The notes below the pieces were generated by a model. The model was given only the letters and a program-made list of their open reading frames with translations. It did no database searches and was not told the DNA's origin. From positions 72,089 to 136,088 of the forward strand of contig CAZEEV010000001.1 of NCBI GenBank assembly GCA_964511345.1: a DNA stretch of 64,000 nucleotides, in the 5' to 3' direction. Origin of the DNA: an uncultured Pseudomonadales bacterium. Lineage in GTDB: Bacteria > Patescibacteriota > Microgenomatia > UBA1400 > PJMF01. Below, one piece after another: positions 1,519 through 58,870 of the stretch; within the stretch, counting starts at the first letter, position 1, and each line of letters opens with the position of its first letter. Both the position numbers and the translations under genes were made by a program.

Positions 1519-2521
1519 TACAGGAAGTTACTAAAATGGTAATAATTTTACCAACTGTTCCCAGATACAGTGATAGAAATCCAAGTCCAGCACTACTTAG
1601 AATGTAGAAAACTGCTATCCTTCTTCTACCCCATCCATAATAGTCCATTAGTTTATGATGTAGATGACCTCTATCACCCCAAAAAGGAGATTTTCCAGCA
1701 ATAATGCGCCTAATAATGGCAAAGACGCCATCGGCTGTAGGAATAGCTAAAACCATTAAAGTGGTAGCTACTTTAGCTCCAGACAAAATAGCTAAAATAC
1801 TCAGAAAATAGCCAGCTAAAGAACCAGCTCCGTAACCAGGCATAATTTTTTGTGGATAGAAATTCCAAACCAAGAGTCCGGCAAAGGCTCCGGAAACAAT
1901 GAATGCTAAATTAGCGACATTGAATTGAGTCGGGTTATCAGCAAAACGATTGGCTAAAATAGCTATAAAAATACATGATACTGCAACAAATCCTGGTAGT
2001 TGGCCATCAACACCTTTAGCCCAATTAATGATGTTCATATTCCATATGATAAAAAACACCGCAAATAAACTAGATAAAATCCAGATTGTTCGATTCTCCC
2101 CAAATAGATACAAATTCAATTGTGGTTGATCGAGGTGGATCACTCCCGGTCCAAAGGGGTTACTTACATAGGCAATGCCAATACCTGCGCCAACAACGAT
2201 TAGACTAGCTAATAAGCCAGTGAAAAGTCTGATATAAGGATTAAGATCAAAAATATCATCGATGAAGCCAACTAAAGTGAGTAAGGTTGCTCCTAAGAAA
2301 ATCGCCAATAAGTACCTATCGAAATCTAAAATTAAAAGCGCTCCCACTAAGGTAGCCAGAAAAATAACTAAGCCTCCTCCTCTTGGTACTGCTCTAGAAT
2401 GAGTTTTTTTAACATGTTGATTTTTTTGAGGATCATCTAGCCAATGATAGCGACGATAGAAACGAATAATGAAAGGAGTGATAAACAAAGCTAATAAAAA
2501 ACTACTTAAGAAAGACCACAT
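1472..2521 (-). CDS. Glycosyltransferase family 4 polyprenyl-phosphate sugar-1-phosphate transferase (MraY/WecA family)
   Basis: Around 10 TM segments. Contains DDxxD-like FIDDIFDL motif and HxxKK...PRGGG cytoplasmic loop (HVKKTHSRAVPRGGG) typical of MraY/WecA. Confidence 0.7.
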   Translation of the reverse strand: MWSFLSSFLLALFITPFIIRFYRRYHWLDDPQKNQHVKKTHSRAVPRGGGLVIFLATLVGALLILDFDRYLLAIFLGATLLTLVGFIDDIFDLNPYIRLFTGLLASLIVVGAGIGIAYVSNPFGPGVIHLDQPQLNLYLFGENRTIWILSSLFAVFFIIWNMNIINWAKGVDGQLPGFVAVSCIFIAILANRFADNPTQFNVANLAFIVSGAFAGLLVWNFYPQKIMPGYGAGSLAGYFLSILAILSGAKVATTLMVLAIPTADGVFAIIRRIIAGKSPFWGDRGHLHHKLMDYYGWGRRRIAVFYILSSAGLGFLSLYLGTVGKIITILVTSCIVFAFLVYSKIKQNG

Positions 2522-24471: not shown

Positions 24472-26826
24472 TTAAACTGAAGCATTAAACAGTCGATTAG
24501 AGACTTCACTAAGCTTAATTTGCAAAGGTGGACCAGCCGGATCAATCGGCTCATGTTTGAAACCAATTAGAGCAATATTTTCTGGATTATCATCTTTTTC
24601 ATTGGTTAAGAATGTTGAATTGCCAGTTCCTAACATAATTTCTTTAATTTGCGCCTTAATGGTTTGAACTCTAGACTCATTCCAATTTTCTGGATTAGTT
24701 TTATCTTCAAGTCTTTTGAGAGAGGATAAAATAATACGCCTAAGTGTTCTATCTTTAAGATCGTCTAGATATTTTAGATTCTGTTGAGCTAAAGAAAAAT
24801 GCAAGTTAAGTTCTAGCAATGAATAGCCGAACTCTTCTTTTACCTCTAAATTAATAAATGAGTTTGGATCGTCCCAATCTTTGGGTTGGTATGAATATGG
24901 TAAGACGTAAAGATGAGAGCTATTAGTAGCTTCTTTTCGTTGGTGATCTTCTGTTTGTCTGGTTTCTGTTGCTTGATTTTCGCTAGTTTGCTTGGATACA
25001 ACAGCGGAAGTTTGGTAAAGATCGCGATTTTTAATTGCTAATAAATATGAAAAAACTACTCTTTCTACCCAAGCTCTTTCAGCAGGAGCTAATTTAAATA
25101 GTGCTGGAGTTTCCATCTGTTCATTAATTTCAAAAACAAACGCTCTTTTGCTTAGTTGCAGAGAAACTTCTAAATTATGAGGACTAGTAGTACGTCTAAA
25201 AGTAAGTTGCTTTAAGCCAATTTGAGCCAATAATTTGTCTTGGCCTTGAGACTGATCTAATTTGACACTAATGCCTCTTTTAGAAATAGGGAACATTCCA
25301 CCTCTAGCTTGATCTTTAAGTTCTGTTAATGGCGTGGTCTCATCCAAATCTAACTCAGGACGAAGAAAAGTCACAATGGCTGCCATTTCAGCTATTTCTA
25401 AAGGTTTAGTAGATGTATTAAGTAAATGAGGAAGATTAGCCTTAAGTTCTAAAATAGAAGCTGGGTCTAGTTTATCTAAATCGTTACGAGTAATATTTCC
25501 TCTCCAAGTAAGAAGACTATTTTCTTGATTCTGGGCAAATTGGGAGGGAATGACAAAGCCACCAAAATCGCCTTCTTTTTTTAACAAATCCAATTCTTTT
25601 TCCATGGCAAATTTAATTAACTCATTTGCCAATGGATCTGAGGCATAATTTTCTATTTTTTCACAAAATACTGGAAGATTATCTGTTTTTTTGGCCATTT
25701 CTATTCTAGAGTTAAATCCTGCGAATCTGAGAATTTCATCAAACTTTCGATCATCGCTAAGAGTATTGCTACTTTGCTCAAAGATTTTTTCTAAAATAGC
25801 CACTTTAATGATTGATTTTTTGACATTAGCCTGTAACTCAGATTGGCTAGTTTCTTCATTTGGATTCACACTGATGATTTCAACGACTTCTCCCAAATCA
25901 TTAGTTCTGCCGATCATATCCTCTGCCACATATGCTCCTAAGGAAGTAAAAGTTTCTAGCACATACTGAGCCTGTTGACGTACTTGTAAATCGGGGTGGT
26001 GAATATGAGTGAACTTAATTACGTCAAATAAATCACAATAATCTTCTATTGCCTCTCCTTGCTGATCCTTTTTTGGTTTATCAATACTTAAGTCTTCAAA
26101 TATTCTTAGGACCACTAATTGTTTTAAACTGTTTCTGCATTGTAGTGCTACTAAAGAAAGTTGATGAAGATTGTTAATAATTTTTTTAAATGGAAGTTGA
26201 TCGATTTTTGGAATTGATTCTGGACTTTTTGATTGCTCGTGTCTTCTTTTTGAATTTGATTCAGAAGTTAAGCCATTTGCTTGCTGTTCAATTGCTCTTC
26301 TAGTTCCTCTTATTCTAGATGGAATTATTTTAGACTCTTCTAACAATGGAAAAATATCTTCACTCGTATTAAATGATTTTAGTTTGTTACCATTCTCTTG
26401 GACAAACTGTTTCAAAGTCGGGCTGAAAATTTTAAAATCAGTCATTCCCATGTTCATTGCCAAAGTTAAGGCATTTTTATATTTATCATTTAATTTAGGA
26501 TTAGCACCTAAACCATTAATTAGAAAAGAGAATTCTTCCTGATTGCACCAGTAGTGTTCTTTTTTATCGGAGAGAAGTTCTGTGATTTTATCTAGGATTA
26601 ATTCTTCAAATTCTGCTAAAAGAAGATCAGAGCGACTTGCGACTTCTGTTTTTATGAGTCCCAACTCTTTGAGATTTTGAGCTTGTTGAATTTGTTGATA
26701 AATTTCTGATTGCTCTATTTTACTCATAATATTATCTTGTCTTTTTTCAAGAAGAAAATTTGTGGTGACCCTAAGGTTTCTACATCCGAACCAAATTATA
26801 ACAGATCTAGTTGATCTAATGAACAC
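24472..26826 (-). CDS. Large orphan protein (784 aa as listed; probable true start at 26727, MSKIEQ...). It has an ankyrin-like segment, no P-loop and no known catalytic motif
   Basis: Long uninterrupted ORF. LGANPKLNDKYKNALTLAMNMG resembles one ankyrin repeat. A TATAAT -10 box lies inside the listed N-terminal 33 codons. Confidence 0.55.
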   Translation of the reverse strand: MFIRSTRSVIIWFGCRNLRVTTNFLLEKRQDNIMSKIEQSEIYQQIQQAQNLKELGLIKTEVASRSDLLLAEFEELILDKITELLSDKKEHYWCNQEEFSFLINGLGANPKLNDKYKNALTLAMNMGMTDFKIFSPTLKQFVQENGNKLKSFNTSEDIFPLLEESKIIPSRIRGTRRAIEQQANGLTSESNSKRRHEQSKSPESIPKIDQLPFKKIINNLHQLSLVALQCRNSLKQLVVLRIFEDLSIDKPKKDQQGEAIEDYCDLFDVIKFTHIHHPDLQVRQQAQYVLETFTSLGAYVAEDMIGRTNDLGEVVEIISVNPNEETSQSELQANVKKSIIKVAILEKIFEQSSNTLSDDRKFDEILRFAGFNSRIEMAKKTDNLPVFCEKIENYASDPLANELIKFAMEKELDLLKKEGDFGGFVIPSQFAQNQENSLLTWRGNITRNDLDKLDPASILELKANLPHLLNTSTKPLEIAEMAAIVTFLRPELDLDETTPLTELKDQARGGMFPISKRGISVKLDQSQGQDKLLAQIGLKQLTFRRTTSPHNLEVSLQLSKRAFVFEINEQMETPALFKLAPAERAWVERVVFSYLLAIKNRDLYQTSAVVSKQTSENQATETRQTEDHQRKEATNSSHLYVLPYSYQPKDWDDPNSFINLEVKEEFGYSLLELNLHFSLAQQNLKYLDDLKDRTLRRIILSSLKRLEDKTNPENWNESRVQTIKAQIKEIMLGTGNSTFLTNEKDDNPENIALIGFKHEPIDPAGPPLQIKLSEVSNRLFNASV

Positions 26827-27041: not shown

Positions 27042-28079
27042 TTATGGTCGTCGCGGAGGTCTTTGTGGTTGTTGCGGAGGTACTCCTCCTTGAAACATCT
27101 GGAAATGTTTGCCCCAAGATACACCAGTTTTACTTTCGTAAAGTTTTATAAATGGACTGATGCTAAAAAACCCGTTTAATAAAATATAGGCTTCCCATAG
27201 TAAATCCTTTAAACTACCAGAAGCAACAGATACTTTTAAATCTGTTAAATCTGCAATTTTTTCTGGCGTTAGTGGTCTCGAGTGTATTTTATGAGAGTTA
27301 TAGTCGGAAAAGTAGGAAACCATCTTTTTTAATTTTTGACCATTCATTCTTTGACCAGCAAACATGTATTTTTTTAACCATGTAGATACCAATTCTTTTG
27401 AAAGTTTTTCAGAGTCATAGCATAATTCGAATAAGTCTAGTGAATATTGTTCAATCAGAGGTAGATATGCTGGTAGTACTTTGGCGCCATCCCTCTTGAT
27501 TATGCTTTTTGCATGATCAAATCCATTTAAAATTGATTTTGCAGGGACAAAGCGCACAAGACCATTTTTTGCAGGGATCCCTACTTGAGGATCAACAGGA
27601 CCTAAGGTTGCACTTGGATGTAACACAATATTATTTCCTGATAAAGCTAGCATTGTTGCTGCGGAATATGCTGAGTGAGGAATAAGAAAGTCAACTTGTT
27701 GAAATCTGCTTCTAAGTATTTCGACTATTCTTTCGGTTGCATCTGGTCTACCGCCAGGACTATGTATTAGCACGTCAACACTAGTTATTTCTGACGGTAT
27801 TGAGTTGACTAAGTCAGTAAACCCATCAACGTCTGACAAGTCTATTTGATTTGGAGCCCCATCAGGAACATTTTCAATGAACTTAGTTGCATATACTAAC
27901 AATGGTTTCTCTCTCAATGCTTCAATTTCAGAATAACAAAGCTTCCTTAAATCAAATAGCGTGGACGCTTGAATTCCTTGCGGTTGTTGTAAAAGTGGGG
28001 CGATGTAATCGTGCCAATCTTGAGTAGTTTTAAAAATCCTGCGTTGTTGTTGAGAGGATGGCATATCTATTAATCTCAA
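27042..28079 (-). CDS. ClpP-superfamily serine protease (SDH/S49-like) with proline-rich C-terminal tail
   Basis: VLIHSPGGRPDATERIV oxyanion motif, catalytic Ser context HSAYSAATMLALSG, LGPVDPQVG, tail QGGVPPQQPQRPPRRP. Confidence 0.65.
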   Translation of the reverse strand: MRLIDMPSSQQQRRIFKTTQDWHDYIAPLLQQPQGIQASTLFDLRKLCYSEIEALREKPLLVYATKFIENVPDGAPNQIDLSDVDGFTDLVNSIPSEITSVDVLIHSPGGRPDATERIVEILRSRFQQVDFLIPHSAYSAATMLALSGNNIVLHPSATLGPVDPQVGIPAKNGLVRFVPAKSILNGFDHAKSIIKRDGAKVLPAYLPLIEQYSLDLFELCYDSEKLSKELVSTWLKKYMFAGQRMNGQKLKKMVSYFSDYNSHKIHSRPLTPEKIADLTDLKVSVASGSLKDLLWEAYILLNGFFSISPFIKLYESKTGVSWGKHFQMFQGGVPPQQPQRPPRRP

Positions 28080-28263
28080 AGTCTAGTGTAGAACTAACTT
28101 CTGATGAGTTTGCATAGAAGCCTCGTCCATAAGCAATTTCTGCTTCACTAAGAATTGCCTTTGCCTTTTTATACTTTTTATAATATGTAAAAGATTCTGG
28201 GATTTGTTTTTGAATTTTTTTAGTTGCAATCTTACTTACGATCGTTTTTTTAGTAGTTGCCAT
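28030..28263 (-). CDS. 77-aa basic small protein, first gene of the protease operon (possible regulator/partner)
   Basis: ORF overlaps the protease start by about 50 nt; K-rich; no recognised motif. Confidence 0.4.
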   Translation of the reverse strand: MATTKKTIVSKIATKKIQKQIPESFTYYKKYKKAKAILSEAEIAYGRGFYANSSEVSSTLDFEINRYAILSTTTQDF

Positions 28264-28599
28264 ATAAGTAAATCATATCACCTACGATTTAATTTTCTAG
28301 TAATAATAAACCCAGTGTCTGGTTCAAAAGTTTCTAGTGTTTAATTTGTCGATAGCTTAATTAAGGAGAATTCGTTAATACAGACATGTGATCTGTGGGG
28401 CTATTTTACAAGTAATTTATCCAAGTAGTAGTAAATCATCTAAGTATAAAAGAGAATTCAGTAAATATGTGTTGGATATATTAAAAATCAAAAATATAAA
28501 TGAAGCTACTAAAACAAAAACACTTTATTCATATAAGAAACCGAAATTTTGTAGAGTCGTTATGTAGTTGGCGTGAAGTTACAAAAAAATCAGATACAT

Positions 28600-28607
28600 T
28601 GTATAAT
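28600..28607 (+). promoter_or_regulatory. Extended -10 (TGTATAAT) candidate promoter for the OLD-family gene
   Basis: TGnTATAAT about 49 nt upstream of the ATG at 28656, in a 392-nt AT-rich divergent intergenic region. Confidence 0.35.
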
Positions 28608-28655: not shown

Positions 28656-30608
28656 ATGTATATTAAAAAAGTATCGATAAAAAACTTTAAAAGTTTCAAA
28701 ACTGAGACAGAAGTTGTTTTACAAGATGGATTAAATCTAATAGTTGGTCCTAATTCTGGAGGAAAAAGCAATTTGCTTGAATTAATCCAAGCATTCTTCA
28801 ATGATGTTTTTTTTATGGATGCTAGCTTTGAACAAAACAATGAAAGCAATCCAAATAGATTGGTGGTAATAAAACCTTTTAAAGCTGTTCAACAACGTTC
28901 AGATGGCAATCAACTACAAAGAGTTTTTGATTCGCACGTAAATGGATCTGGTGAAAGCGTTCTTAAAGTTGTTTTAGCTATTACTAAAGATGATATAGAT
29001 AATATAAATGAATTTAAAAAAACAATAGATGTTTTGGAAGATTTTGAGAATAAAGAAATTGGCTCAAATTTTATAAGCCAAGTAAAAAGAGGTTTTAATC
29101 TATCTACCAAATATGAAAGCTATGTAGATTCAGATTTACCAATCATTTTTACTCTTAGTAATGATGCTCAAGTAGATAGCTCAGTAAAAACAAATGATTT
29201 AGAGGGATTATTTCATTTTTTACGTTGGAGTAGAGTTATATTTAAGTTAGCCTGGTTTTATAAACTTTTTAGACCAGATTATGAAGTAAAGTTGAGACCG
29301 TATTTTTACTATATCTCACCCGCAAGGGATTTTTCCCTTTCAGAGAATGAACATATTATTGATTTAGCTCAAGTGAATGGAAACAGTGCAAATCAATTCA
29401 CTCAGAGAAACATAAATCAGGAAAGTAGGATAAGTAATCTTGGTGTTTTAATAAGAATATTGGTTGAGAATTATTATTACGCTGGAAAGAAAAATAATCC
29501 AAGCAATGATGAGTTTAGAAAAATGTTGAATGATTATTTAAAAATGGATTTTTCAATAGCAACGCATGGAATAGAAACGCAAAATAAATACAAACTTATT
29601 TTCAGAAAAATAAGTAGTTCGTCTCTAAAACTAAGTTCTGGAGAAAGGGAATTTTTTAATTTATTGTCAACTGTATTTGCGCAGAACATACGTTCAGGAA
29701 TATTGATTATTGATGAGCCAGAAATACACTTACATCCTAAATGGCAACATATTTTTCTTGATCTTTTAAAGAGTATATCGGTAATTAGAAAAATACAGAT
29801 TATTTGTGTAACACATTCTGCATCATTTATCAGAAGAGATTTGCTTACAGGTATCATCAGAGTGTCAATGATAAATGATGAGAGTCATGTTTATCTTCCA
29901 AATAAAAGTCAAACGCAAAATACCACGATAAAAGATCAGTTTATGCTTGTTACGGCGTCGAACAATGAACGTGTTTTTTTTGCTGACAAGATAGTACTTG
30001 TTGAAGGTTATGCTGATAGAATCATTTTTCAAGCCATTTTAGATAAAGTTTATTCACAGGATAAACCAATAATTGAAATTGTTGATGTTTTTGGAAAATG
30101 TAATTTTGAAAGGTATAAAAACTTTTTATCGATTTGGGATATATCTACAAAAGTTATTGCTGACCTGGATTATTTAGCAATGGTGGATAGTGAAGCAAAA
30201 ACAAAAATTTTTTCAGTTGAAGAAAAGAAGCTACAGAAAAAATTGGAAAAAAATAATAGCGAAGATGGAAAAAGTTTATTAAAGATCTTATCTCATATTT
30301 GCGACAGTGAAGTGGACGAAGTATGTGAAATCGATAAAAATCAGTTGTGTAGTTTATATAAATATCTTAATACACGTCATTCATCTTTGGTTGTAACTGG
30401 CAGTCAAACAGATATAGATTATTATGTTGAAAAAAATAAAAAAGATAATTTGTATTTTCTTAAAAAGGGAGAAATTGAAGATTACTTTCCAGGTATAGGA
30501 AAGTTTGATATCGATTCAGCTATTGATATTGGTGAGAAAATAAAATCAGGTGAGATTGCGATAGATAAAGAGTTAGCAAAATTAATAAAAGAAGTTGCTC
30601 ACAGCTAA
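28656..30608 (+). CDS. OLD-family ATP-dependent endonuclease (ABC-type ATPase + C-terminal TOPRIM), class-1 (stand-alone) architecture
   Basis: Walker A GPNSGGKSN, ABC signature-like LSSGEREF, Walker B ILIIDEPEIHLHP, H-loop CVTHS. TOPRIM glutamate VLVEGYADRI and DxD as IADLDYL. Confidence 0.8.
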   Translation: MYIKKVSIKNFKSFKTETEVVLQDGLNLIVGPNSGGKSNLLELIQAFFNDVFFMDASFEQNNESNPNRLVVIKPFKAVQQRSDGNQLQRVFDSHVNGSGESVLKVVLAITKDDIDNINEFKKTIDVLEDFENKEIGSNFISQVKRGFNLSTKYESYVDSDLPIIFTLSNDAQVDSSVKTNDLEGLFHFLRWSRVIFKLAWFYKLFRPDYEVKLRPYFYYISPARDFSLSENEHIIDLAQVNGNSANQFTQRNINQESRISNLGVLIRILVENYYYAGKKNNPSNDEFRKMLNDYLKMDFSIATHGIETQNKYKLIFRKISSSSLKLSSGEREFFNLLSTVFAQNIRSGILIIDEPEIHLHPKWQHIFLDLLKSISVIRKIQIICVTHSASFIRRDLLTGIIRVSMINDESHVYLPNKSQTQNTTIKDQFMLVTASNNERVFFADKIVLVEGYADRIIFQAILDKVYSQDKPIIEIVDVFGKCNFERYKNFLSIWDISTKVIADLDYLAMVDSEAKTKIFSVEEKKLQKKLEKNNSEDGKSLLKILSHICDSEVDEVCEIDKNQLCSLYKYLNTRHSSLVVTGSQTDIDYYVEKNKKDNLYFLKKGEIEDYFPGIGKFDIDSAIDIGEKIKSGEIAIDKELAKLIKEVAHS

Positions 30609-30611
30609 TTT

Positions 30612-30941
30612 TTATAGATTCTTATATCTTTTAGGATACCTCTTTTTAAGATTAGAATTAGCTGCTTTTATTATATCTTTTCCCCAATCATCATTCTTTA
30701 GTTTGTTAGCCTTATTTGCATACAGTAGGCTTATGGGTTTATTCCATACTGATATTAGCCAAGCAATTAATATTGCCAATATTCCTACTCCACCGATAAT
30801 GATGCCAAAAATTCCGCCATAAAACATGGTAAGAACTAGGATTCCAGCAATGAGAATAGAAAGACCTCTCATTCCTTCCTTTTGAGCGACTGCTCCGCCT
30901 ATAAGCATGCTTAAAATCATCAATACAAGTATTTCAATCAT
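30612..30941 (-). CDS. 109-aa two-TM small membrane protein converging on the OLD gene (candidate membrane effector or immunity partner)
   Basis: Two Gly-rich TM helices (GILVLTMFYGGIFGIIIGGVGILAILIAWLI) and basic C-terminus; stop 3 nt from the OLD stop. Confidence 0.45.
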   Translation of the reverse strand: MIEILVLMILSMLIGGAVAQKEGMRGLSILIAGILVLTMFYGGIFGIIIGGVGILAILIAWLISVWNKPISLLYANKANKLKNDDWGKDIIKAANSNLKKRYPKRYKNL

Positions 30942-30992
30942 ATGTAAATGTATACTACCAGTAAGTCGACCAACAGTAAAGATTTTTAGAAA

Positions 30993-31016
30993 CTGTAACC
31001 ATGGTAAAAGTTACAG
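30993..31016. promoter_or_regulatory. Inverted repeat CTGTAAC-N10-GTTACAG spanning the HTH gene start codon (candidate autoregulatory operator)
   Basis: Perfect 7-bp arms at 30993-30999 and 31010-31016 bracketing the ATG at 31001. Confidence 0.4.
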
Positions 31017-31216
31017 CAATCTCAATTAAAATAGGCAAAAACATTAAAAAGATCAGAGTAAATAAAGATATGACTCAGGAAGCATTAGCTTTTGATGCTG
31101 GAGTGAACCGAGCTTACATTGGATATATAGAACGTGGTGAAAGAAATCCTTCAACTGAAACATTATCTAAAATATCAAAAGCATTAAAAGTTTCTTTAGG
31201 TGATCTTCTAAATTAA
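31001..31216 (+). CDS. XRE-family (Cro/cI-type) helix-turn-helix transcriptional regulator
   Basis: 71 aa with IRVNKDMTQEALAFDAGVNRAYIGYIERGERNPSTETLSKISKAL, the classic HTH_3 pattern. Confidence 0.75.
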   Translation: MVKVTAISIKIGKNIKKIRVNKDMTQEALAFDAGVNRAYIGYIERGERNPSTETLSKISKALKVSLGDLLN

Positions 31217-31501
31217 AGCAAAAAATCTCAAAATAACGTGTTTTTATGCATAATTGCACATAAAACGCTGTGATTTTTGTATTGCCAATAAAACCAAGCA
31301 AGGCTAATAAGATAGTTTCCAGACACGGTAAAAAGGGAGCTATAGTGTTGGTTGTTTTCCTATTGCCTTCACATAGTTTTGGTCCCTAAAATTTTATGTA
31401 ATATAAATTACGGGTAAGATTTAAATTTTTTTCAGATGACGGGAAAGCAAATCTAAGTGAATAGAATCTTCTAAGGTTCTATTTAGATTGGCTACCGTTC
31501 C

Positions 31502-31648
31502 ATGACAATCAAAGAGGCAAGGAAAATATTAGGGAGAAAAGCAAAAGATTTGTCTGATGAAGAACTTCAACAAGATATTGATGCGGCAGAATTATTAAAG
31601 GAAATTTTTTTTAGTTTATATCTTTCCAAAAGAAAATCTATTCAGTAG
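31502..31648 (+). CDS. Unannotated 48-aa ORF upstream of the recombinase (candidate excisionase/RDF-like small protein)
   Basis: Translation MTIKEARKILGRKAKDLSDEELQQDIDAAELLKEIFFSLYLSKRKSIQ. Below the ORF-track size cutoff; ends 30 nt before the recombinase ATG; no SD. Confidence 0.25.
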   Translation: MTIKEARKILGRKAKDLSDEELQQDIDAAELLKEIFFSLYLSKRKSIQ

Positions 31649-31657
31649 CCATTCAAT

Positions 31658-31674
31658 GTGCCATAATTCGGCAC
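31658..31674. promoter_or_regulatory. Hairpin/operator GTGCC-ataattc-GGCAC immediately upstream of the recombinase start
   Basis: Perfect 5-bp inverted repeat with 7-nt spacer, 4 nt before the ATG at 31678. Confidence 0.35.
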
Positions 31675-31677
31675 TAT

Positions 31678-33207
31678 ATGGAAAAAAGAGCAGTTATATA
31701 CATTCGCGTATCAGATCCCTCTCAAATAGAAAATAACAGCTTGGAGACACAAGAAAAAGAATGTCGAAAAGCTGCTGCATCTCAGGGTTACGATGTTATT
31801 AGAATTTTTAGAGAAGAAGGTAGGTCTGCCAAGCATATATATACAAGATTAGAGCTAAGGAACCTATTTGACTTTTGTTCAATCAAGAAACATGGAATTA
31901 GTGCAGTTTTTGTTTATAAAACTGACAGGTTTAGTAGAAATGTTGAAGAAGGATTGGCTGCCATTTCAAGGTTAGCAAAGCTAGACATTGAAGTTATTTC
32001 AGTTGTAGAAGGTTATGAAAACAGCGCAATGGGTCGTGCTCTAAGAGTAATGATTATGGCAATGGATCAATTAGATAATGAGCTAAAGGGAGAAAGAGTG
32101 AAGGAAAATATGTTGGCTTGTTTCAGGAAAGGATTGTGGGTTTTCAAATGTCCAGTTGGTTACAAACGAAAGTATCATACAAAAGAGGAGAATAAGGGTA
32201 TACCTCCAATAAAAGACCCCAATTTAGCACCAATCATTACAAAGATGTTCCAAAACGCAGCCACTGGTATTTACAGTAAAAGCCAGCTTGCGCGCATTAT
32301 GAACTTGGAGGGTTTCAGTGAGCATTACAGGGTAGAGGCTGATCACAAAATTGTTGATGGTATCCTAGAGAAAACTTTCTACCACGGACTCATGTATGCT
32401 CAAAAATGGGATTTATATTCTCAGGGTAAACATGAGCCGCTTATTGATGAGACAACTTGGAAAAAAGCCTATCATTATCTCATCTTAAAAAAGAAAAACT
32501 ACCAATATCATGATGAAGAACTATTTCCATTAAAAGGTACGCTTAAGTGTGAAATATGTGGGCATCCAATGACAACTTCCCCCTCAAGGGGTAATGGGGG
32601 GGTAGTGACTTACTATGAATGTCGCAATAAGGGATGTAAAAAGGTTCGTATTAATGCCAATAGTGCGCACCAGCAATTTAATGATTTACTTAGTAGAATA
32701 CAGCCGACTAATAGAGTCATTACGCTTTTTCAAAAGATGGTATTTGTTGAGTGGGATAAAGTGATTAATAAGACTCGAAAACAAGCAGATATCATTGATG
32801 ATCGTATTTATGCTTTCAAGCAAGAATTGAAGAGTATCCGCAAAGCCAAAGACGAAGGTTTGTATAGCATTGAGCAGGCTAAAGAAGAAGCTGAAAAAGT
32901 GAGTCAAGAAATTACAATATTGGAAGTAGAGCGTTCTGAAATAAAGTTTGAACAATACAATACAGAAATAATTAAAGATTTTACTGAAAGATTTCTGCGC
33001 GATCTTAATTTGTTATGGGAAAAGTTAGATCTACCTAAAAAACAGGCATTGCTTCAGAAGATATTCCTTAATACTTTGTTTGTATCAGAAGACAAAAAAA
33101 TCCGAACAAGTGAAATATCTCCATCCTTCCAACTAATTGAGGCTCTTGGTGCCTCTGATGGTGAAAATGTGACCCCATGGGGAATCGAACCCCAGTTATC
33201 GGGATGA
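31678..33207 (+). CDS. Large serine recombinase (resolvase N-domain + recombinase domain + zinc ribbon + coiled coil)
   Basis: Catalytic motif VIYIRVSDPSQ, TDRFSRN, zinc ribbon CEICGHPM...YYECRNKGCKK. Last about 13 codons overlap the tRNA-Glu 3' half on the opposite strand. Confidence 0.85.
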   Translation: MEKRAVIYIRVSDPSQIENNSLETQEKECRKAAASQGYDVIRIFREEGRSAKHIYTRLELRNLFDFCSIKKHGISAVFVYKTDRFSRNVEEGLAAISRLAKLDIEVISVVEGYENSAMGRALRVMIMAMDQLDNELKGERVKENMLACFRKGLWVFKCPVGYKRKYHTKEENKGIPPIKDPNLAPIITKMFQNAATGIYSKSQLARIMNLEGFSEHYRVEADHKIVDGILEKTFYHGLMYAQKWDLYSQGKHEPLIDETTWKKAYHYLILKKKNYQYHDEELFPLKGTLKCEICGHPMTTSPSRGNGGVVTYYECRNKGCKKVRINANSAHQQFNDLLSRIQPTNRVITLFQKMVFVEWDKVINKTRKQADIIDDRIYAFKQELKSIRKAKDEGLYSIEQAKEEAEKVSQEITILEVERSEIKFEQYNTEIIKDFTERFLRDLNLLWEKLDLPKKQALLQKIFLNTLFVSEDKKIRTSEISPSFQLIEALGASDGENVTPWGIEPQLSG

Positions 33208-33241
33208 GAACCCGATGTCCTAACCGCTAGACGATAGGGCC
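33170..33241 (-). tRNA. tRNA-Glu (anticodon CUC), 72 nt, no encoded CCA
   Basis: Manual fold of GGCCCTA-TC-GTCT-AGCGGTTA-GGAC-A-TCGGG-TTCTCAT-CCCGA-TAAC-TGGGG-TTCGATT-CCCCA-TGGGGTC-A. 7-bp acceptor has two G-U pairs; T-loop TTCGATT; architecture parallels E. coli tRNA-Glu. Confidence 0.8.
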
Positions 33242-57864: not shown

Positions 57865-58062
57865 TTAGTAATGAATTGTAAGAATTGCCACTTGCAATGA
57901 TTTTTCATTTTTGTTAGTTTGATTGTTGCTGTGGAATGTAGTGAAAATCTACGACTGTGCCGCAACGGTGATTCTCATTAAGAGATTAGTCCGATCTTCA
58001 GCAAAAAAGAAATCTTGACGAGCATCGAAGTAAATTGAAAAGTGATATTTTTTAGAATCGAT

Positions 58063-58147: not shown

Positions 58148-58870
58148 ATGAGGCTAAGAAAGGTAGAAATGAACAGATCAGCTCTCGAAATGGCAGCAAG
58201 TATTGGGGTCGACCCAACACAAATGAATGAACAATGGAGATCGCTTAATGGTATTAATTTATCGTCGGCACTAAAAGATTTGGGGAAAGAAATTAACATT
58301 AGTGATTTGCAGTGGAATACAATTCTGGCTCAAGCAGGGTTAGGATTAATGAACAGCTTGGATTCCAGAATTGTTTCATTACAAAATAAAGCTGTTGAGC
58401 AAGCAACTGCCATTGAATTAAGACAAATGTTTGGCAAACCATTGTCTTTATTAGCTATGCCGGTTTTTGTCGAATTAGAAAAAATAGAGGTTGCTTCCAA
58501 GGTTTCTTTGAAAGAAGAGTCAATTTCCATGTCTCAAATTTGGGAGCAAATTAACAATCGCTTGCTTTATATGATTCAACTTTTTTTAGCTGAAAGAATT
58601 AACTCATTGGAAGAAGAAAAAAAGTCTCATGAAGAAGCTTTGAAAAATTCAAAGGCGGAAGCTGAAGGAATGCCTGCTTTGGCAGAAACAAGCAAAGAAG
58701 TTGGGGAGCAGTTTGATAAAAAATTTAAAACGTTAGATAAAGAAAAAGAGTCTTTATTAAATATTTTTAATAAAGTAACAAAAAACATAGCTGGTTCGAT
58801 TGAAAATGTATTTGAAACAACAGTTTTTAGTGCTAGTTTGCAAAGTGTTAATCCAGCGCCAGTTCAGTAA
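58148..58870 (+). CDS. Hypothetical protein (probable true start at 58169, MNRSALEM, with AAGGT SD)
   Basis: ORF of 240 aa; the listed ATG is buried in a 10-bp hairpin; acidic coiled-coil C-terminal half. Confidence 0.5.
   Translation: MRLRKVEMNRSALEMAASIGVDPTQMNEQWRSLNGINLSSALKDLGKEINISDLQWNTILAQAGLGLMNSLDSRIVSLQNKAVEQATAIELRQMFGKPLSLLAMPVFVELEKIEVASKVSLKEESISMSQIWEQINNRLLYMIQLFLAERINSLEEEKKSHEEALKNSKAEAEGMPALAETSKEVGEQFDKKFKTLDKEKESLLNIFNKVTKNIAGSIENVFETTVFSASLQSVNPAPVQ

Follow-up and report, generated by a model that had tools for sequence, protein, structure and literature searches.

A putative stand-alone Class 1 OLD nuclease gene adjoins the regulator/membrane-protein module of a serine-recombinase element, probably by chance

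OLD-family nucleases of Class 1 are encoded by single genes (PMC10568477, PMC7049728), and VcOLD defends without a partner (PMC12392090), a stand-alone defence role for this class having been demonstrated only recently. Among defence hotspots is the P2 old locus (PMC10568477, PMC9122126); in those carried by P2-like prophages and by P4-like satellites, backbone genes flank swapped, self-contained anti-phage systems (Rousset et al. 2022, PMC9122126), with Old as the archetypal occupant of the P2 slot. Here we compare with these systems a locus in a window of 64,000 nucleotides, the whole stretch of DNA analysed. At this locus, a 650-aa OLD gene on the plus strand (28656–30608) converges on a gene for a 109-aa small membrane protein of a rare unnamed family on the minus strand (30612–30941), with the two stop codons separated only by positions 30609–30611. 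These are the ORF sizes and the 3-nt stop spacing given in the first-pass annotation, which had proposed the pair as a new OLD-plus-membrane-protein system. Our analysis points elsewhere. Most probably, two unrelated functional units abut by chance, namely a self-sufficient Class 1 OLD and the 109-aa gene of a regulator/recombinase backbone, with OLD lying in or beside the cargo slot of that backbone.

The reading of the 650-aa protein as a Class 1 OLD ATPase–TOPRIM fusion is upheld by its Pfam domains, by every motif quoted for it and by PADLOC. The ABC-type ATPase (residues 1–392, nt 28656–29831, plus strand) matches Pfam AAA_15 at 1.8e-24, and the TOPRIM core (residues 441–505, nt 29976–30170, plus strand) matches OLD-like_TOPRIM (PF20469) at 3.1e-15. 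In the translation, the ATPase motifs GPNSGGKSN (31–39), LSSGER (326–331), IIDEPEIHLHP (351–361) and VTHS (385–388), i.e., Walker A, signature, Walker B and H-loop, are invariant across 20 homologues, and the TOPRIM domain contributes VLVEGYADRI (447–456) and DLD (503–505). The nearest solved sequence is the Class 1 OLD of Thermus scotoductus (TsOLD, 6p74), matched at 6.4e-16, or at 2.9e-22 with a profile. Alignment with TsOLD pairs E450 with E377, D454 with D381, D503 with D431 and D505 with D433; E450, D454 and D503 are invariant and D505 is nearly invariant in the 20 homologues. The metal-A residues thus aligned appear intact, with the predicted metal-A glutamate (E450), DxD motif (D503 and D505) and metal-B aspartate (D454) all conserved. 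The HMMER alignments with 6p74 end before the metal-B region, for which Class 1 has a Ser/Thr-x-Glu motif followed by an Arg/Lys (TsOLD S478, E480 and R487) and no C-terminal helical domain. Past this point, by sequence reading rather than structural superposition, the family shows no variation at G605 or E608, and K616 sits 8 residues beyond E608. Since the DxD motif and the putative metal-B motif (605–608) are approximately 100 residues apart, compared with 45 in TsOLD, OLD probably contains a large helical insert, and the mere 42 residues that follow E608 argue against a Class 2-type C-terminal domain.

Assignment to Class 1 draws on gene context and PADLOC ranking, since a Foldseek search of the PDB with the AlphaFold2 (AF2) model (pLDDT 83, pTM 0.79) returns retron-Eco8 OLD, TsOLD and GajA as top matches with similar E-values and does not separate the OLD classes. 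The top PADLOC model is P2-type Old (PDLC02358, 1.7e-37), followed by the GajA models (2.8e-28). The ORFs flanking OLD encode an SDH-type protease, a 77-aa product, the small TM protein, an HTH protein and a recombinase. Pfam and PADLOC detect no helicase domain in the neighbouring ORFs, none is found beside close homologues either, and directly 3′ of OLD there is no GajB/UvrD-like helicase, the downstream gene being that of the convergent 109-aa membrane protein. Pfam likewise detects no reverse transcriptase domain in the neighbours, no Rfam retron family is found within the window, and the NCBIfam model retron_eff_Eco8 scores OLD at 64.8 bits, below its cut-off of 250. ATPase and TOPRIM are fused in a single ORF, i.e., not split as in AriA/AriB. 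Since neither a helicase nor a reverse transcriptase nor a retron RNA lies nearby, OLD is placed in Class 1, and the evidence supports its identification as an ordinary stand-alone nuclease of that class. The contrast that the first-pass annotation had drawn with Gabija (GajA/GajB; Class 2 OLD) and class-2 OLD also holds. GajA models rank second in PADLOC and GajA structures figure in the leading fold matches, but the PADLOC score is better for P2-type Old, and no GajB- or UvrD-like partner occurs among the flanking ORFs.

Like P2 Old, TsOLD and Vibrio cholerae OLD, the protein fuses an N-terminal ABC-type ATPase to an OLD-type TOPRIM with conserved metal residues, in one gene without helicase, reverse transcriptase or split partner, and, like P2 old, the gene is in or beside an integrated mobile element. 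However, it is merely ~15–25% identical to the characterised Class 1 OLDs, is longer than the solved TsOLD chain (650 versus 528 aa) and has a canonical LSSGE, whereas a degenerate signature is reported for Class 1 homologues (PMC7049728). It also differs in its host, an uncultivated low-GC bacterium, with Patescibacteria as the named relatives, and so provides an extra data point as a divergent stand-alone Class 1 OLD. By analogy with the P2, T. scotoductus and V. cholerae enzymes, the ABC-type ATPase would dimerise and regulate, and the fused two-metal TOPRIM nuclease would nick or degrade invading phage DNA; no partner gene would be needed, and we infer that OLD acts alone in defence. A promoter-like site, GTTACA-18-TATAAT (28578–28607, plus strand; 10/12 consensus matches in a scan), lies ~50 nt 5′ of the OLD start codon and is a lead rather than a finding, because such sites are no commoner in the region than in shuffled expectation.

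The 109-aa gene is real, because it is under purifying selection: the first-pass annotation had named a dN/dS near 1 as grounds for rejecting its proposal, and the value among the L172, L175 and L176 copies is 0.20–0.23. An early indication that the ORF was an orphan or spurious, from a word-indexed search that returned only the query itself, was overturned by exhaustive HMMER searching, which yields 11 proteins at E ≤ 1e-3 (best 3e-23, 42–51% identity). The family comprises ~15 homologues at 38–51% identity, of ~105–145 aa, with C-termini of different lengths and the conserved motifs SMLIGGAV..GMKGL, FYGG, W(F)IS..KPIS.LY and ..KKYP (alignment A2). It has no Pfam, PADLOC or NCBIfam match, and matches phrog_944, ‘membrane protein’, only weakly (E = 0.0044). 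A tblastn search of phage genomes with the 109-aa protein gives no match, and scans of viral contigs find none with the 109-aa protein, P0126, two conserved 20–21-mers of the control region described below or the SDH protease. The protein had been labelled ‘double-TM’; instead, Kyte–Doolittle hydropathy and AF2 each give three membrane helices, followed by a strongly basic C-terminal tail. The AF2 model (pLDDT 70.9, pTM 0.34) places helices at residues 2–19, 23–41 and 43–67, then two short helices, and a N-out/C-in topology is predicted from the positive-inside rule only.

The conserved partner of this gene is a different neighbour. By distance, the 109-aa gene is indeed the tightly linked neighbour of OLD, as first annotated, but it is not the only close pairing at the locus: an XRE-family HTH regulator of 71 aa (31001–31216, plus strand; Pfam HTH_3, 2.2e-18) lies equally near the 109-aa ORF, divergent from it across a control region of 59 nt (30942–31000). 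This control region is better conserved than either flanking gene: in the comparison with the related locus L177, 52/59 nt (88%) of it are identical, whereas the coding DNA of the HTH gene is 66% identical and that of the 109-aa gene 58%. On sequence reading, it holds three TTACWGKT repeats and the element TTTACT-17 nt-TGGTAGTAT (extended -10-like), which ends 8 nt before the ATG of the 109-aa ORF, and no Shine–Dalgarno sequence is visible before that ORF. These motifs are presumably promoter and operators, through which the HTH protein would control the 109-aa gene. Beyond the regulator, on the same strand, are a 48-aa ORF (31502–31648), possibly a small accessory or directionality factor on sequence reading, whose position just 5′ of the recombinase gene is held in L172 by a 50-aa ORF (likeness judged by eye), and the gene for a large serine recombinase of 509 aa (31678–33207), which matches Pfam Resolvase, Recombinase and Zn_ribbon_recom and phrog_95 integrase (2.3e-67). 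The last 39 nt of the recombinase gene overlap the 3′ end of a tRNA-Glu(CUC) gene on the minus strand (33169–33241; ARAGORN; Rfam tRNA, 60.4 bits), the candidate integration target or anchor. Overlaps of the same kind occur in L002–L004 (tRNA-His), L006 (tRNA-Trp) and L172 (tRNA-Asn).

The divergent pairing recurs wherever the 109-aa family was retrieved. Each of the four independent contexts has an XRE regulator gene divergent from the 109-aa homologue (in one, the regulator gene is interrupted by a nonsense codon), and a large serine recombinase lies beyond the regulator on all three contigs that extend far enough to include one. L172–L174 and L175 share the order recombinase, HTH, 81–90 nt, 109-aa homologue, with an HTH 50% identical to the one in the window for L172 and L175; in L176 a homologous HTH lies 75 nt upstream of the 109-aa homologue and divergent from it, and in L177/L178 the order is recombinase, interrupted HTH, 109-aa homologue. 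Thus the neighbourhood survey that had been proposed for the 109-aa homologues identifies the divergent XRE HTH (4/4), not OLD, as the constant neighbour. What follows the 109-aa homologue varies: in L172 and L175, whose elements are homologous across 9.1 kb with different flanks, the adjacent genes match PD-Lambda-2 A, B and C (2e-35, 3.8e-140 and 3e-37), and in L177 the adjacent gene matches PifA (9.8e-87). The divergent pair of three-helix membrane protein and repressor-type regulator, together with the large serine recombinase (3/4 contexts), would then form the backbone of ~9-kb tRNA-targeting integrative elements. The slot past the membrane gene would be occupied by a known defence system that changes from element to element: Old in the window, PD-Lambda-2 ABC in L172 and L175, and PifA in L177. 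Because L172, L175 and L176 are fairly close relatives, the pattern rests on three lineages; within them, the position beyond the 109-aa gene appears to take up defence cargo as the P2 and P4 slots do. The likeness to the P2 and P4 hotspots extends to their backbone genes flanking exchanged anti-phage systems, yet the backbone here is a ~9-kb tRNA-targeting large-serine-recombinase element with no recognisable capsid or replication genes. One difference within the set concerns orientation, OLD being convergent with the 109-aa gene in the window and the cargo co-directional with the 109-aa homologue in the other elements.

Whether OLD neighbours the 109-aa gene by joint function or by position can be judged from each side of the junction. 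It is highly improbable that the two genes together constitute a new defence system in which the membrane protein serves as effector, as immunity factor or as a holin-like killer, even though their stops are just 3 nt apart, both genes are intact, the 109-aa gene is under purifying selection, and the predicted N-out/C-in three-helix topology with its basic tail recalls small pore-forming proteins. Searched against every ORF of 168 OLD-anchored loci (1.6 Mb), the 109-aa family HMM finds no member except the re-assembled window sequence, tblastn of the 109-aa protein against the OLD loci finds nothing, and none of the four independent contexts of 109-aa homologues contains an OLD. Downstream neighbours of ~100 full-length OLD homologues are heterogeneous. 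The closest OLD (L001, 70% aa identity), in the order murI-like racemase, OLD, tRNA-Glu, has 43 nt from its stop codon to the tRNA and nothing between. Relatives at 35–43% identity are followed by other genes, such as those for a PD-T7-4-like DUF4145 protein (L002–L004) or DUF4238 (L005), or by host genes such as rpsU (L006). A 118-aa convergent membrane ORF 3′ of the L007 OLD, considered as an analogue, shows no similarity and a different topology. Being convergent, the two genes are not an operon; the 109-aa gene has its conserved partner in the HTH, and Class 1 OLDs work alone (PMC12392090). OLD thus appears to adjoin the 109-aa gene because it occupies or borders the cargo slot. It is possible, though less probable than its absence, that a separate insertion made the junction: OLD would be a resident or older island gene by tRNA-Glu, and a minimal 2.5-kb element (109-aa gene, HTH, 48-aa ORF and serine recombinase; ~30627–33165) would have integrated later between them. 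The alignment with L001 extends through OLD to 30626 and is taken up again at 33166, within tRNA-Glu, so that L001 lacks exactly that block, although a deletion in the L001 lineage accounts for the same data; in L170, assembled independently from the same strain, the sequence breaks at 30613. The final five codons of the 109-aa ORF lie in sequence that aligns with the 3′ flank of the L001 OLD, and this, like the variable C-terminal length of the family, fits an ORF running out of the insert, but that flank alignment covers just 18 nt of AT-rich sequence, and in related elements the 109-aa homologue is internal, with cargo after it. Moreover, OLDs of this clade are habitually inside serine-recombinase elements, and the left junction shows no displaced tRNA fragment or att repeat. 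Indeed, a search for att or tRNA-Glu duplicates that would mark the element ends, the left one in particular, yields nothing above chance by repeat finding, by 11-mers, by blastn-short or by ungapped scanning, and per-gene GC and GC3 provide no useful separation of OLD from the recombinase module.

As for the 109-aa protein itself, prophage lysogeny modules encode membrane proteins, e.g., Sie-type superinfection-exclusion proteins, beside a regulator and an integrase or recombinase, and our best guess is that the element encodes it as an envelope protein under HTH control, for example with a superinfection-exclusion or moron function. The likeness consists of a small membrane protein beside a repressor-type regulator and the recombinase of its element; unlike Sie-type proteins, the 109-aa protein resembles no named family in sequence or fold, and its gene is divergent from the regulator instead of co-transcribed with it. 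Its function is conjectural. A holin-like or other toxic membrane effector, silenced by the HTH repressor, released on induction and independent of OLD, would also suit a gene that opens an operon divergent from a repressor-type HTH, with a leaderless-like start adjoining a strongly conserved control region. The three TM helices and basic cytoplasmic tail, from positive-inside topology and the AF2 model of pTM 0.34, would fit class I-like holins, and the ~105–145-aa length of the family members would suit this reading. We nevertheless regard this as quite unlikely: there is no holin PHROG or Pfam match, a BFVD fold search with the 109-aa model returns nothing below E = 0.8, and no endolysin or lysis genes are found in the window neighbourhood or in L172–L177. 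In L177/L178, furthermore, two assemblies show a nonsense codon at position 13 of the HTH gene beside an intact membrane gene, which would be unexpected if derepression were lethal. A broader proposal, that the XRE-HTH and 109-aa pair with its conserved 59-nt region marks the defence-cargo hotspot of undescribed ~9-kb tRNA-targeting serine-recombinase elements in uncultivated low-GC, probably Patescibacteria-type, bacteria, and that the 109-aa protein is itself an envelope defence, e.g., by superinfection exclusion, is unlikely to hold in full. More speculatively, the 109-aa protein might act as a common membrane partner of the cargo systems, working with the one that happens to be adjacent.

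The locus flagged in the first-pass annotation, then, most likely holds no new OLD-based two-gene system, and the hotspot pattern is the only part that merits a wider survey: it hints at exchangeable defence cargo (Old, PD-Lambda-2, PifA, PD-T7-4-like) on the small serine-recombinase elements of these bacteria, placed beside a conserved regulator/membrane-protein module in a manner similar to that of P2 and P4 in E. coli. At the junction itself, a search for a bidirectional terminator finds no terminator-like site (fold z-score -0.67). Given this and the 3-nt stop spacing, the OLD and 109-aa transcripts probably overlap, and some regulatory cross-talk between the two genes is therefore possible in this genome.

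The 650-aa OLD protein, an ATPase-TOPRIM protein encoded at 28656..30608 on the forward strand, converges on a 109-aa ORF at 30612..30941 on the reverse strand, with 3 nt between the two stop codons, just as the first-pass annotation had described, and all the motifs that it quoted are present in the large protein. Residues 1-392 match the Pfam family AAA_15 (1.8e-24) and residues 441-505 an OLD-like TOPRIM domain (3.1e-15); the top defence-system model is P2-type Old (PDLC02358, 1.7e-37), with many GajA models next. Among solved proteins, the nearest in sequence is a Class 1 OLD from Thermus scotoductus (TsOLD, PDB 6p74), matched at 6.4e-16 with the single sequence and at 2.9e-22 with the family profile. 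The metal ligands of TsOLD, E377, D381, D431 and D433 (PMC7049728), align with E450, D454, D503 and D505, respectively, of which the first three are invariant and D505 nearly invariant among 20 homologues. The AlphaFold2 (AF2) model is confident (pLDDT 83, pTM 0.79), and its top PDB matches, retron-Eco8 OLD, TsOLD and GajA, confirm at the level of the predicted fold that the protein belongs to the family, without separating the classes.

Gene context sets the class of an OLD: a Class 1 gene stands alone, a Class 2 gene is accompanied by a UvrD-like helicase (Gabija) and a Class 3 gene lies within a retron (PMC10568477, PMC7049728). The PARIS system makes up Class 4 (PMC12392090), with ATPase and TOPRIM nuclease as two proteins, AriA and AriB (PMC11464382). 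In the window, OLD is flanked on one side, on the opposite strand, by an SDH/ClpP-type protease gene that a 77-aa ORF overlaps, and on the other by the genes for the small membrane protein, an XRE HTH regulator and a large serine recombinase. The window contains no retron RNA, and the NCBIfam retron-Eco8 effector model scores 64.8 bits, far below its cut-off of 250. By context, therefore, the Class 1 assignment made beforehand holds, and OLD joins these known nucleases as a new and divergent member.

A 107-aa ORF runs antisense within the OLD gene (29534-29857, reverse strand), showing that ORFs of ~100 codons can arise by chance in this AT-rich sequence; length alone was thus not accepted as support for the 109-aa gene. 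A word-indexed search with the small protein returned only itself, and an exhaustive HMMER search of 1.84 billion representatives matched 11 proteins at 42-51% identity (best 3e-23), to which a profile search added further homologues. Conserved blocks stand out clearly in their alignment, among them the first helix, which lies upstream of the alternative Met12 start. An ORF lacking any selection signature, one of the outcomes that the first-pass annotation had named as refuting, is not what is seen: dN/dS is 0.20-0.23 (dS 0.85-1.08; Nei-Gojobori, three moderately diverged copies). Judged by these sequence comparisons, the small ORF is a real gene. Its product had been described as double-spanning; hydropathy and the AF2 model (pLDDT 70.9, pTM 0.34) instead predict three membrane helices (2-19, 23-41 and 43-67) and, after them, a strongly basic tail. 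An annotated fusion among the homologues, P0130 (190 aa; NCBI contig, 1321 nt), carries, in place of the first TM helix, an N-terminal stretch of ~90 residues that by eye resembles the end of a glycosyltransferase; this ORF is possibly a chimera at the edge of an element.

The proposal that OLD and the small membrane protein form a new two-gene system is not supported. OLD loci were gathered by seven exact-protein look-ups and, for another 160, by genome and metagenome scans with the family profile. Neither tblastn with the 109-aa protein against the OLD-homologue loci nor the small-protein family HMM run on every ORF of 168 OLD loci (1.6 Mb) found any relative other than the window's own sequence re-assembled, so the small gene is absent next to OLD homologues in related elements, an outcome that the first-pass annotation had itself named as refuting. 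Downstream of ~100 full-length homologues of OLD, the genes are of mixed kinds. The most informative case is the nearest relative of OLD, on contig L001 (described below), which lacks the small ORF. The next relatives (35-43% identity) occupy the distal end of serine-recombinase elements of 6-8 kb, which have integrated at tRNA-His or tRNA-Trp. Among them, OLD is followed by a DUF4145 protein matching PD-T7-4 (1.8e-15) in L002-L004 (7962-8606 in L002), by a DUF4238 protein in L005 (6967-7896; DUF4238-Pers, 3e-5), by host rpsU in L006 and by an unrelated 118-aa ORF in L007. The second gene in L002-L005 is co-directional with OLD after a gap of only 8-13 nt; as candidate OLD partnerships, or as stacked defence cargo, such close tandem pairs are more promising than the pair in the window.

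The small gene keeps different company. Four independent contexts of its homologues were retrieved, none containing an OLD. In L172-L174 and L175, a large serine recombinase, a 50-aa ORF, an Omega-like repressor, a 124-aa ORF and a 70-aa XRE HTH lie in this order on one strand, with the small membrane gene divergent from the HTH, 81-90 nt apart. L176 has the same HTH, overlooked by the gene caller, divergent and 75 nt upstream. L177 and L178 have a recombinase, a GP3_package-like protein, an interrupted HTH homologue (1745-1942, reverse strand, in L177) and then the intact small gene; the interruption is an in-frame TAA at codon 13, found in two independent assemblies and with no start codon downstream, beside an intact control region. 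The window's own HTH (71 aa, 31001..31216, forward strand) is 50% identical to that of L172/L175, and the recombinases are only family-level relatives (26% identity). Between window and L177, the 59-nt HTH/small-gene intergenic region is identical at 52 of 59 positions (88%), against only 66% and 58% in the flanking coding regions, which makes it the most constrained sequence of the module. It holds three TTACWGKT repeats and, ending 8 nt short of the small-gene ATG, the arrangement TTTACT-17 nt-TGGTAGTAT; no Shine-Dalgarno sequence precedes the gene. We infer divergent promoters with operators and a leaderless-type mRNA.

Searches of Pfam, PADLOC and NCBIfam gave no match for the small protein, nor did phage genomes or BFVD folds; one weak match is phrog_944 ('membrane protein / moron', E=0.0044). 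A protein of this size with three helices and a basic tail is reminiscent of class I holins, which we take to be a resemblance only. No lysis genes accompany the small gene, and its intactness in L177/L178, where the presumed repressor is broken, argues against a lethal product. Our best guess, made with low confidence, is an element-encoded envelope protein under the control of the HTH, for example a superinfection-exclusion protein or moron.

Directly beyond the small membrane gene lie PD-Lambda-2 A, B and C in L172 (2e-35, 3.8e-140 and 3e-37), the same three genes in L175 (B gene, 2.1e-137), PifA in L177 (9.8e-87) and Old in the window. By these profile matches, the genes in this place are recognisable, self-contained defence systems that differ between elements; L172 and L175 have 9.1 kb in common and differing flanks. 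The P2 old locus is itself a defence hotspot (PMC10568477). On the simplest account, OLD and the small gene would abut because OLD occupies, or adjoins, this cargo slot. A mildly interesting by-product, resting on few loci, is that small serine-recombinase elements have a conserved HTH/small-membrane-protein module beside a variable slot for defence systems.

The window's element encodes a 509-aa large serine recombinase (31678..33207, forward strand), the final 39 nt of which cross the 3' end of the antisense tRNA-Glu(CUC) (33169..33241, reverse strand). Similar overlaps in related elements, with tRNA-His (L002-L004), tRNA-Trp (L006) and tRNA-Asn (L172), indicate a family of tRNA-targeting serine-recombinase elements. 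A search for the left end of this element did not locate it: the 64 kb hold no copy of any part of the tRNA-Glu and no att-like repeat; serine recombinase sites have only a short core in common, so the missing repeat is not surprising.

Two arrangements of the left end remain. OLD may be cargo of one element of ~9 kb extending leftwards to position ~24.45 kb, which would also carry the phage-related SDH protease and a 784-aa orphan; OLDs of its clade habitually ride serine-recombinase elements, and the small gene is internal in related ones. Alternatively, OLD may be a resident gene, with a minimal element of 2.5 kb having inserted between it and tRNA-Glu. The nearest OLD relative (P0003, 70% identical) lies on contig L001 in the order murI-like racemase, OLD, 43 nt, tRNA-Glu; DNA homology to the window spans the OLD gene to 30626 and restarts at 33166 inside the tRNA, and the block 30627-33165 (small ORF, HTH and recombinase) is absent. 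This exact indel favours the minimal insertion, as do an assembly break at 30613 in L170, another sample of the same strain, and the end of the small ORF, whose final five codons lie in sequence aligning with the L001 OLD 3' flank. GC content per gene does not decide between the two, and under either arrangement the adjacency of OLD and the small gene is not functional linkage.

The window has further features. At 27042-28263 on the reverse strand lie the SDH/ClpP-fold serine protease (345 aa; phrog_11747, 2.9e-44) and, upstream of it, the 77-aa ORF that overlaps it by 50 nt. Homologues of the protease occur in Gordonia phage BeeGee (gp31) and in Porphyromonas phages, and it has no PADLOC match; it is possibly further mobile-element or defence cargo beside OLD. 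The 784-aa ORF (24472-26826, reverse strand) matches nothing in Pfam, PHROGs, PADLOC or NCBIfam; with a host P-type ATPase on one side of it and the protease/OLD block on the other, it is a possible marker of the island's far end. A 48-aa ORF (31502-31648, forward strand) with the motif ...LSDEELQQ...LLKEIF... immediately precedes the recombinase and may encode a recombination directionality or accessory factor; the 50-aa ORF in the equivalent place in L172 has, by eye, a similar acidic-then-leucine-rich pattern. An AdoCbl (cobalamin) riboswitch lies at 57906-58050 on the forward strand, upstream of the ORF 58148-58870, and scores 50.4 bits against an Rfam gathering threshold of 50.
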